Positions 41,181-45,200 of a stretch of DNA of 64,000 bases are shown piece after piece. Under the pieces are notes generated by a model. It was not told where the DNA came from. It saw only the letters and a list, made by a program, of their open reading frames with translations, and ran no database searches. The translations under genes were made by a program, and so were the position numbers. Position 1 is the stretch's first letter, and each line of letters begins with the position of its first letter. Source of the DNA: Octopus vulgaris. Lineage: Eukaryota. Where the stretch lies: contig OX597818.1 of the NCBI GenBank assembly GCA_951406725.2, positions 110,360,001 to 110,424,000 on the forward strand, written 5' to 3'.

Positions 41181-42266
41181 CGTCAACACACGATCCGTCA
41201 AACAGATTCGTAGCAAGTTGAAACATATCGAAGTATCTTTCAAACTGATAAGAGGCCATTATGAAAAGCTTCTACATATTTTCACAGTTCAAGAACAACA
41301 ACAGCTAGAAAATCAGCAGCCACAACAACAACAACAACAGAATGAGCCACTCCTGGTTCCCAACACAATGGCTGACCCTGACATCGGTCAGGCACAACAA
41401 CAACAACAACAGCCACAGCAACAAGAACAACAACAGCCACTCCTCAACTCTAGCTTACTAGACGATTCACTAAATGCCAGTATCTTTTCACCGCTCTCAC
41501 AGCAACCACCACAATTATCATCATCATCATCACCACCGCTGCTACCATCGTCTTCTATCACCAAAAATACCAACAGAAAACCAAATAAGAAACCACTGCC
41601 CTCTTCCCCCACATCACCACCTCAATACTACTGCAGTAACAAAAACTTAAAGAAACATAGGAAGCAGAATGCGCCCCCCACGGCACAAACAAGAAATCCC
41701 CAAATATGCCGCTATTCACTGCGCCAGAGACTCTGCACAAATAGTGACTGCATCTTCACGCATCTACCCGGCACTAGACGCACTACTGGCCAAGGCCAAA
41801 GCACGCATCCCACAATAACATCAACACCACCAAATAGTAAATCGAAATTCAAAACACACACAACTCGGAGTCCCAAAATCTGCCGGTATTCCCAACGTGA
41901 GAGAACATGTCTACTGAGTGACTGTCCCTTCACTCATCTTCCAGGGACCCGACGCACAAACAGAAACGGGGCCTCAAGCCAACACACAAACCTGAATAAC
42001 AATAAAAATAGAAACACACCATGCTGCAGTAATGCTGGTCCAGTCTTTTCAGGAAGACACAAAAACAACAACAACAAAAGTGGAAACTACAACCCTATCC
42101 AACAGTGCAACCACACCTCCAGCCAAAAACTGCTCCCTAAGCAGGAAAATTCTTTTTAGCCATGTTGAACATGGCAAAAGAGATACACAAAAACATTCTA
42201 GCCATCACTCAACACCATCCTATGCTATTACCCCAGTGCACCAATTCCCCACATTGCTGCCACTAA
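41181..42266 (+). CDS. LINE ORF1 (probably 5'-truncated), poly-Q linker and two CCCH zinc fingers
   Basis: C-x8-C-x4-C-x3-H at 41707-41763 and 41881-41937. As given, the frame stops at 42159; with one extra T at 42153-42157 it continues [16 protein letters not shown]... to TAA at 42266. Confidence 0.75.
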
Positions 42267-45200
42267 CACACACAAAAAATCCAAGCCCCCTGCAACAGTC
42301 AAAACCAGCCACTACACTAACCTCCACATTCCTACTCAATGCACAAGGTGTCAGCCCTTCCATCAATGCACAAAAATGGAAGGTCCAATTCATTGAAGAC
42401 TGGGTTGGTAACCATTCACACCACATCCCTTTCTTCATTCTCACTGAGACCCACCTTGACAACTCCCACTTGGAAGCCGAAGTGAGAGTGAAGAATTTCA
42501 CAACCATCCGCGCGGATCGTATCGGCAGGAGGAAGGGTGGAACTGCCATTTTCCTGCATGATTCATTTACGGCAGATGGAAATAGTATATTCTCCAACGG
42601 CTACTGTGAATCAGTCACCGTGCACAACAAAGCCAATGATCTGACAGTAATTGGGCTCTATAGGCCGCCCCAAACACCCATACTGTGCTTTAAAGAATGC
42701 CTCAACAGCATTAAGTGCTTTATTCAACAGTGCCATTCTAGCAACATACTCATGATGGGAGACTTCAATCTACCCTGTGTTGACTGGACTACAAACTGTT
42801 TGAAACCAAGCACTCCCGCCTCAACCGCTGACAAAGAAGCAGCAGAGTCACTTTTCGACTTTACGAATGAGTTTTTCTTGTCCCAACTTGTCCTTGCACC
42901 AACAAGACATCAGAACATTTTGGACCTAGTGTTTAGTAACCACACTAACACTATACATAACGTTACAGTGGAAAAAACCCTTCTTTCAGACCATGACATG
43001 GTTCTCTGTAACATGAAATTCCACCAGCCGAAAGCTAATCCTAGTGACCTTCCTCCAGCCCACCCATTTGACAACATGGATCTCCATAAAGCCAACTGGG
43101 ATGCAATCAGGAACGAGCTATCAAATGTTGACTGGTCCTTTACACATACACACATCTCCACCAACCATAAAACATCTTGGCAGATCTTTGTAGACACCGT
43201 CACAGACATATGTGCAAAACACTCCCCACCAAGACCTGTGAACAAAAAGTGCAGAATCCCCCAAAACAGAAAAACCATTATCAGAAAAATAAAAAGAACA
43301 AACAAAAAAATTAACAAACTAAAGTACTGCCAACAGCAACACACACATTCGACGGCTATCGCACTGCTTGAATCCAAAAAATATAACCTCCAACAATGCA
43401 TGAAGTCCCTCATCAATAACCAAAGATCAGCTGAGGAGAAGTGGGCCATTGAAAAAATCAAACTCAACCCCAAAGTGTTCTTTTCATTTGCGAGGAAACG
43501 CAGGGTCACTGTCTCCACTGTAGGCCCTCTAATTGACGAAACTGGCACTCTCCAAGATAATGCCAAATCCATGGCCGAGATACTGCAGAAACAATACTGC
43601 TCTGTTTTCAGCAATCCTGATATGGCCGATCTGGGCTGTATCAGTGATGTCAACCCCCAACACACTATATCGGACATAACGTTTAGTGCCCTGATGTCTT
43701 AGCGGCGATAAACGAAATAAAACACAATTCAGCAGTAGGCCCCGATAGGTTCCCTGCTTGTGTCCTGAAGGTGTGTCGACACCAACTTGCATCTCCCCTT
43801 GCTAATCTGTGGAGAAACTCACTGGATGCTGGCTATATTCCAAAAAACCTTCTGTCCCAGTCTGTTGTCCCAGTTTTCAAAAAGGGAAACAAGTCCCTTG
43901 CAGTGAATTACCGTCCGATCTCACTCACCTCTCATATCATCAAGGTATTTGAGAGGGTGGTGAGATCTCAAATAACCCAATTTCTGGAAAGCAACAGACG
44001 GCTGATCTCCAACCAACATGGGTTCCGTAATGGAAGGGACTGCCTAACGCAGCTCCTGCATCACTTTGAGGACATTTTGAGAGCTTTGGGAGAGGGCTCC
44101 AACACCGATGTCATCTACCTTGATTTCAGTAAGGCCTTCGACAGGGTCGATCACAAGATCCTATTGAAAAAACTATCCAACATTGGTGTCTCTGGAAAGT
44201 TACTGAAATGGATTAAGTGTTTCCTGACAGACAGATCTCAACATGTTGTAGTTGAAGGGGTAAAATCAAGCCCAGCCAAAGTCAGTAGTGGCGTTCCGCA
44301 AGGCACTGTGCTGGGCCCACTTCTTTTCATCATTTACATTAATGACATTAATGACATCATCAAGCACAGCAACATAAAAATCTTTGCAGATGACTCCAAG
44401 CTACAGAAGGTCATAAATGAGGCGAGTGACCGGACATGCCTTCAGTCAGATCTACTGGCTGTTATCCAATGGGCAGAAAAAAACAATATGCTGCTGAACG
44501 AGGATAAATTTGAGCTAATCCACTTTGGAAAAGAGGATGCCCTGAAACTCCCATACTCCCTTCCTTCAGGTGAAACTCTCGCGGCGTCCAACAACATCAG
44601 AGACTTGGGAGTAATTGTGGACAACAACGTAAGCTGGGCCACTCATATAAACACCAAAGTTGACATGGCCCGCAGAATGTGTTCCTGGATTCTCAGAACT
44701 TTCCAGTCGAGAGATATCCACACCATTATCCTTCTCTTCTCCACTTTTGCCCGACCCCACCTTGAATACTGTTGTCCACTGTGGTCTCCCCACACAATAC
44801 AAGGTATCAAAAAAGTCGAAGCACCTCAAAGGGCAATCACAAAAAAGATAGATGGCATGACAGGCCTCGACTATTGGGGTCGACTAGAAAAGCTAAAACT
44901 CTATTCTCTCCAACGTCGTCGTGAGCGCTACATCATCTGCATGATGTGGAAAATATTCCATCAGCATTGCCCAAATGATGTTGGCATCACCTTTAAGGTA
45001 CATCCAAGGCTTGGGCCCCGTGCCATCCGCCCAAAACAAAAATCGCACTCTCATCTCATAACAACAATACGGCACAATTATTTCACCTCAATTGGCCCCG
45101 CTCTCTTTAACATTACACCAAAACACATTAAAACAGAAACTGACCCTATAGGGTTCAAGAAGTCTTTGGACAGATTCCTTCAAGAAATCCCGGATAAACC

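Follow-up and report, generated by a model that had tools for sequence, protein, structure and literature searches.

A conserved slippery heptamer at the ORF1-ORF2 junction of a LINE clade in Octopus vulgaris points to programmed -1 ribosomal frameshifting

A young LINE copy and its family

This study concerns the junction between the two open reading frames (ORFs) of a long interspersed nuclear element (LINE) in the genome of Octopus vulgaris. The stretch analysed, hereafter the window, comprises 64,000 nucleotides (nt) of contig OX597818.1 (assembly GCA_951406725.2, positions 110,360,001 to 110,424,000 of the forward strand), and all features described lie on its plus strand, with positions counted from its first letter. 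At 41182..45352, inside a (TA)n microsatellite, lies a young, 5'-truncated copy of a LINE family that we call A, with a 3' tail of (TATCAAAG)n. The remainder of its ORF1 (41182..42156) encodes two CCCH-like zinc fingers, one at 41707..41763 (zf-CCCH_2, E 0.004) and a repeat of it, recognised by inspection of the translation, at 41881..41937, and is closed early by a TAG at 42157-42159. ORF2 encodes an APE endonuclease domain (42326..43000), with the conserved Asn codon at 42338-42340 and the earliest in-frame ATG at 42752, as well as a reverse transcriptase (RT) domain (43885..44613), and ends with a stop codon at 45268-45270. A preliminary description of this DNA had read the end of ORF1 as AAT TCT TTT TAG, with five T at 42153-42157, and a second lesion at about 43690 as the loss of 1 nt from a homopolymer. 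Both readings are correct: the early stop of ORF1 is due solely to the five T, and the C3 run at 43689..43691, which disrupts ORF2, is a private 1-nt loss, C4 being present in 27 of the 27 other fetched copies that cover the site. The window copy is a broken copy or an assembly error, short of one T and one C.

Full-length copies of family A measure about 4.6 kb, and in one of them, L043, a leader of about 325 nt is followed by an ORF1 of 409 amino acids and, at the 3' end, by the (TATCAAAG)n tail, which is present in all 11 family A copies displayed. The full ORF1 protein consists of a Myb/SANT-like N-terminus, a Q/P-rich middle part and the two CCCH-like fingers, the Pfam matches in ORF1 being weak and below the curated cut-offs. 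An ORF2 with APE and RT, together with many 5'-truncated interspersed copies, marks family A as a non-long-terminal-repeat (non-LTR) element of the APE type. Elements of the CR1 group end in short tandem repeats, not in poly(A), and have no RNase H domain. In ORF2 of family A, Pfam recognises APE and RT only and no RNase H domain, and its RT and C-terminal motifs are presumably of the CR1 type. Judged from its tail and these motifs, rather than from a tree with named references, family A probably is a CR1-group LINE.

The ORF1-ORF2 junction and its conservation

The preliminary description had predicted that the T run at the end of ORF1 would count six T in intact elements, and this is what most copies have. 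Exact pattern counts in the genome give 18 copies with four T, 100 with five, 209 with six and 6 with seven (333 in total), and the main contig has six T in each of the 8 short-read runs examined, out of 24 listed, although such contigs drop minor variants and rare forms. No RNA data set is recorded as containing the stretch. A DNA similarity search of the genome with the window junction returned 832 candidates; it ranks by identity to the window, yields only five-T copies and, being biased in this way, was not used for counting. In the six-T majority the site at 42153..42158, which is T5A in the window, reads T_TTT_TTA (Ser-Phe-Leu) and is the sole in-phase heptamer of the strict XXXYYYZ form among 406 ORF1 codons; the five-T copy in the window itself has no such heptamer in phase. 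As had been foreseen for a run of six T, ORF1 then reads N-S-F-L-A-M-L-N and onwards through a helical C-terminus (AMLNMAKEI...) to a TAA at 42264-42266, so that 42159..42266 is a dual-coding overlap in which the terminal helix of ORF1 lies over a linker in the ORF2 frame. This ORF2 frame is the -1 frame, in which a slip at T_TTT_TTA would land, again as proposed. It is closed on its 5' side by a TAA at 42138..42140, opens 4 codons before U_UUU_UUA, extends over 1043 codons and has no Met ahead of codon 205, which lies past the first APE motifs; 6 of 20 unselected six-T copies have it complete in this form. The lack of an early Met noted previously is confirmed, there being no ATG between 42032 and 42752.

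The ATG at 42032..42034 is in the ORF2 frame in five-T copies only, where this frame is open from 41996, and is no ORF2 start in the majority form. It is met by a three-codon ORF (Met-Leu-Gln-stop, 42021-42034) in a TAATG that resembles the stop-start of SART1; in six-T copies neither frame reaches ORF2, and the TAATG probably is there by chance. Just 5' of the U run, family A also has a relaxed heptamer in phase, G_GAA_AAU at 42144-42150, which is possibly a second slip site.

Four further young families were found in the same genome by a search with a database homologue and in the flanks of fetched loci: B (80% at the nucleotide level), C (68% at the nucleotide level), and D and E (about 35% at the amino-acid level). 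Two fragments that had first been taken for new families mapped to places in family D. The in-phase junctions read TCT TTT TTA in B and C, TCT TTT TTG in D and AGA AAT TTT in E, with ORF2 in the -1 frame in each case. By pattern count, six T are present in 82 of 93 copies of B, in 53 of 60 of C and in 90 of the first 100 of 408 matches to D, and the AAATTTT heptamer of E in all 20 copies fetched. Four-fold degenerate third positions match at a rate of 0.66 between A and B, 0.42 between D and E, and 0.23-0.36 in all other pairs, and are near saturation between A/B, C and D/E. One family B locus with four T (L069, G000:C4:51755500-51761000) has a continuous ORF1-ORF2 frame of 1416 codons, a natural in-frame fusion.

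An alignment-based search of metagenomes with the APE domain identified 68 loci, 15 of which match the whole domain; at one of these (L238) the junction is cut by the contig end, which leaves 14, and 17 of the 53 weaker loci were examined as well. All 14 have a long ORF1 that overlaps ORF2 in the -1 frame and contains the motif x-F-L followed by a helix-like segment, and their heptamers are T_TTT_TTA (9), G_GAT_TTT (3) and G_TTT_TTA (2), at amino-acid identities down to 35%. They group with families A-E with a Shimodaira-Hasegawa-like approximate likelihood ratio test (SH-aLRT) value of 97, in a quick tree in which long branches were flagged. In a representative protein library, 7 of 11 ORF1 matches (P0007, P0008, P0010, P0011 and P0015-P0017) resemble relatives of this ORF1, and 6 of these 7 keep F-L ahead of the helix. 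A word search with ORF1 gave no homologue, the ESM Atlas no usable match, and a single-sequence APE scan of metagenomes nothing; viral contigs gave no match, and prokaryote genomes gave seven distant matches, of which L305 alone was examined.

When the loci of the octopus and of the metagenomes are combined, a heptamer is found in phase at the ORF1 motif S/H/D/N-F in 19 loci, 12 with U6A, 1 with U6G, 1 with A_AAU_UUU, 3 with G_GAU_UUU and 2 with G_UUU_UUA, which makes 14 strict and 5 relaxed ones. All clade members examined have a slippery-class heptamer at the homologous Phe. For comparison, 12476 ORF2 codons contain 45 strict (0.36%) and 94 relaxed (0.75%) heptamers. Omission of the near-duplicates L240, L241, L243 and L248 leaves 15 lineages; pooled numbers leave out family B, and the product of codon probabilities leaves out A too. 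Given the amino acids, codon usage would produce the heptamer with a probability of 0.02-0.30 per lineage, the product over 13 lineages being about 1e-17. If Phe is followed by CTG or GTG (L237, L242 and family E), the heptamer occurs one codon earlier, as G_GAU_UUU or A_AAU_UUU, a displacement that is not expected from constraint on the protein; since it shifts when this codon is not TTR, it is the motif class that is kept and not just the amino acids. From the heptamer to APE the -1 frame has no stop in 1002 codons, where about 77 would be expected; the control counts are 249 in 3224 codons for the -1 frame upstream and 74 in 1053 for the third frame. The distance from the opening of the -1 frame to the heptamer has a median of 4 codons, the open linker reaches back to the heptamer over 40-113 codons, the dual-coding overlap spans 30-90 codons, and 10 of the 15 lineages are free of ATG up to the APE Asn.

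By the codon-usage null and the saturated four-fold sites, the heptamer appears to be conserved beyond what the amino acids require. This LINE clade probably produces its endonuclease-RT fused to ORF1, by way of programmed -1 ribosomal frameshifting at a conserved heptamer close to where ORF1 ends. At the level of sequence the proposal of the preliminary description thus stands, and neither of the two outcomes that it had named as contrary was encountered: six T are the majority with ATG 42032 out of the ORF2 frame, and in the relatives the homologous site carries a heptamer in phase, ORF2 again being in -1. The frameshifting itself is what we infer from these features.

ORF1 shows weak matches to Myb/SANT and CCCH in A, C, D and E and matches to PHD, not to Myb, in the metagenome loci L239, L244 and L246. 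CCCH fingers and the terminal helix persist while the N-terminus varies between Myb/SANT-like in the octopus families (L043:3401-3620) and PHD in the metagenome relatives (L239, L244, L246). The ORF1 types I-IV described for Jockey, CR1 and L2 elements are RRM plus CCHC, L1-like, PHD or esterase. A word search of PMC4120745 for "CCCH" and "Myb" gave neither. Several other loci are of interest for their junctions. In L273 (2359-2390), a more distant LINE whose ORF1 motif we take to be insect CR1-like, A_AAA_AAC immediately precedes the stop of ORF1, and ORF2 is in -1. L259 (52-226) and L260 (1290-1467) belong to a distant LINE outside the clade with A_AAU_UUU one codon past the opening of the ORF2 frame and no ATG before APE, a heptamer whose codon-usage probability is high (about 0.6) and which is weak when taken alone. 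L255 (1774-1927) has a long ORF1 over ORF2 in -1 with A_AAA_AAA and A_AAA_AAG in phase, and L252 and L269 have +1 overlaps instead. As to insertion sites, (TA)n tracts flank both ends of family A copies (41182 and 45352 in the window; L036-L055), the family A tail terminates in TA-compatible letters, and copies of families B-E often adjoin family A copies. The (TA)n flanks and the end of the tail suggest microsatellite-targeted insertion of family A.

Downstream structure and rival explanations

The slippery site is directly followed by the perfect 7-bp hairpin GCCATGT-TGA-ACATGGC (42159-42175; -8.3 kcal/mol, z -3.2, equalled by 3 of 200 shuffles), which the preliminary description had taken as part of the signal. 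The core is indeed perfect, but it is part of a longer predicted fold (42151..42183) whose extended 5' arm includes the U run, pairing it with a downstream AAAAGA (-15.8 kcal/mol, z -6.3), and the other families have not conserved it: this strength is reached in family A only, B has a weak version, and D has a hairpin over its U run. A role of the hairpin as stimulator is not supported, its spacer being 0, whereas the usual distance between slippery site and structure is 5-9 nt (PMC7618472), and no structure at that spacing is common to the lineages. An alternative stem-loop that excludes the hairpin is predicted at 42164..42213 (42164-68 with 42209-13, and 42171-75 with 42201-05). It starts 5 nt after the heptamer (p 0.01), with -10.3 kcal/mol and z -3.4 on copy L043, is seen at this spacing in family A only and is a candidate for the stimulator of that family.

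Several observations weigh against the frameshifting reading. No 3' stimulator shared by the 15 lineages was found with minimum free energy, stem-search or opening-cost tests; with 60-nt windows, structure at 5-14 nt is better than that of shuffles in 2 of 15 lineages (combined p 0.23), and with 90-nt windows in 1 of 15 (combined p 0.02), so that it does not stand out clearly from the shuffles. Three lineages need a relaxed XXX rule, and the heptamer of D, ending in G, lies beyond the strict consensus. MAFFT left the F-L/V motif of D and E unaligned to that of A-C in ORF1, and the homology of the D/E site is judged from the alignment in the ORF2 frame and from the local motif, which makes it weaker than the others. 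The linker does contain an in-frame ATG in five of the 15 lineages (B, C, D, L247 and L249), at differing, unconserved positions; that of B lies 7 nt ahead of the ORF1 stop, and A has a CTG in its place. The predicted proteins P0003 and P0004, considered here at the protein level, begin with a Met at APE. The lineages share ancestry, so that the multiplied probabilities overstate their independence, and the search for heptamers was made within the open overlap, with the ORF1 motif as an independent mark of the site. As background to these points, G_GA and G_UU are natural XXX variants (PMC5009743, PMC2569925), U_UUU_UUA works with diverse 3' signals in alphaviruses (PMC2569925), and protein stimulators of frameshifting exist (PMC7618472).

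The strongest rival is a separate ORF2 protein made by termination-reinitiation near the ORF1 stop, at an AUG or a non-AUG codon, with the U run kept for another reason, for example as the Phe-Leu start of the helix. L1 translates ORF2 without need of its AUG (PMC4091050), SART1 uses a UAAUG stop-start (PMC3894237), and the linker ATGs of C, D, L247 and L249, the ATG of B and the equivalent CTG of A (42257..42259), a candidate reinitiation codon, would all suit such a mode. A UAAUG of the SART1 type is not present, as family A has no ATG at the ORF1 stop and B alone has the one upstream. In 10 of the 15 lineages the linker has no ATG, and its position varies in the rest. The ORF1 stop of C, D and E lies across the codons for Leu-Asn in the first strand of APE, so that a restart after the stop would lose the APE Asn, and E has no ATG upstream of this Asn. 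Nor does reinitiation account for the fixed synonymous codons of the heptamer, for the displacement of the heptamer by one codon in L237, L242 and E, or for the long open -1 frame. We consider it unlikely as the general mode, and it may contribute in some lineages. Transcriptional slippage, in which RNA polymerase II adds one U or drops two and so generates in-frame ORF1-ORF2 RNAs, appears very unlikely. The run is unstable in family A, where 24 of 333 copies (those with seven or four T) are in-frame fusions and another 100 have five T, and T-run changes recur over the tree. However, E, L237 and L242 have four U only and nonetheless a tandem-slip heptamer, shortened copies account for only 5-8% in B, C and D, and new insertions mostly have six T, which would be unexpected if slipped RNAs were the only source of ORF2 protein and this protein acted preferentially in cis.

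The chance is slight that ORF2 has an RNA of its own, made by splicing or by internal initiation, with the pyrimidine run and AG at 42150-42159 as a 3' splice acceptor. Such an acceptor is suggested by the AG directly after the T run in A and B, yet there is no AG after the run in C, D, E and most metagenome loci, the single genomic copy with a non-T before AGCCATG has a point substitution and is no spliced copy, and contigs that probably derive from RNA are unspliced across the junction, with the limit that contigs drop rare forms. Hardly any credence can be given to the idea that the five-T form is a functional subfamily which uses ATG 42032 or a +1 shift at UUU-UAG. It is the form of 100 copies and opens the ORF2 frame to that ATG; against this, no main contig among the 8 runs has five T, no relative has such a layout, and the five-T label does not follow descent. 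In a tree of 39 copies, 19 with six T and 20 with five, which were taken in list order with L040 left out, the label needs 14 changes compared with 13.3 for shuffled labels, a count as low being reached in 382 of 500 shuffles, and one five-T and one six-T copy are identical across 3070 nt. As five-T copies are scattered over the tree, five T represents recurrent loss and no subfamily; a functional five-T subfamily is largely refuted, and the +1 shifty stop was dropped. Of the 333 copies of family A, 118 have a shortened T run, vs 5 of 93 in B, 4 of 60 in C and 8 of 100 in D, while other 6-7 nt homopolymers of family A are shortened in at most 5 of 56 (0-9%). A slip of RT or RNA polymerase II at a hairpin-bound U run would fit this excess, as would a context-specific sequencing error.

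In the frameshifting reading that we prefer, most ribosomes would complete ORF1, yielding a protein of 409 amino acids that ends in the conserved helix, and a minority would slip on tRNA-Phe/tRNA-Leu to give a protein of about 1411 amino acids (374 + 1037, by arithmetic) in which the linker and APE-RT replace the terminal helix. For family A, we propose that the ribosome would unwind the hairpin in which the U run is hidden and cover its first arm, and the freed arm is predicted to refold into the stem 5 nt downstream, which would act as the stimulator; other lineages would use different or weak stimulators. Taken to its full extent, the proposal is that LINEs of a clade widespread in animals, and perhaps a large part of the CR1 group, express their RT in a retrovirus-like manner, through a -1 frameshift that gives a Gag-Pol-like ORF1-APE-RT fusion with the enzyme in place of the terminal helix. 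What drives the shift in family A would be a switch, triggered by the ribosome, between the hairpin over the slippery site and the stem at the canonical spacing. This we put forward tentatively, at somewhat less than even chances.

Known systems and significance

HIV-1 gag-pol has the same heptamer, U_UUU_UUA, in the same phase, with a structural protein in frame 0 and an RT-bearing -1 fusion (PMC5009743, PMC7618472). Unlike HIV-1, the element described here is a non-LTR LINE with APE-RT, and has no protease for the proposed fusion and no conserved strong stem-loop at the canonical spacing. The alphavirus 6K/TF site likewise is U_UUU_UUA at an F-L dipeptide, was found first by conservation and has diverse 3' stimulators (PMC2569925); its -1 product is a short extension, whereas that of the LINE would be the essential enzyme, and in the LINE the heptamer varies within its class. 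For the APE-type non-LTR elements TRE5-A and TRE3-A of Dictyostelium, a figure legend of a review states that a -1 frameshift is required for ORF2 (PMC5911963). They differ from the octopus LINEs in belonging to another clade, in targeting tRNA genes, and in their oligo(A) tail and C-terminal zinc finger. In Drosophila R1B the ORFs overlap by 14-59 bp in -1, no heptamer or mechanism being named in the part of the source consulted (PMC2718515). The gag of HeT-A needs a frameshift (PMC5009743), and HeT-A, unlike the LINE here, is without RT; within the 300,000 of 449,034 characters word-searched, this review names only HeT-A and TART among non-LTR elements (PMC5009743). Human L1 and silkworm SART1 are also bicistronic APE-type LINEs that have to make ORF2 protein in small amounts, but they obtain it separately by reinitiation, AUG-independent in L1 and at UAAUG in SART1 (PMC4091050, PMC3894237). 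A slippery heptamer in CR1-type LINEs was not described in any paper that our literature search returned; its coverage did not extend to subscription journals or to Repbase Reports, where the -1 overlap may appear. While -1 frameshifting itself is known, the conserved heptamer in a CR1-type LINE clade would be new to the literature searched.

How LINEs translate ORF2 is described in a review as an open and important question, the part consulted making no mention of frameshifting in this context (PMC3894237), and the cases that have been worked out, L1 and SART1, use reinitiation. A -1 signal conserved across a deep clade would offer a testable answer for many of them. Because family A is young, with a median divergence of less than 0.4% among the copies in the tree, intact natural copies exist for assays. 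If frameshifting is true, these elements would form a different ribonucleoprotein, with the RT tethered to an ORF1 moiety and the ratio of ORF1 to ORF2 set by the efficiency of the slip. Their annotation would change as well, as the ORF2 product would have no start codon of its own and gene callers would truncate it inside the endonuclease.

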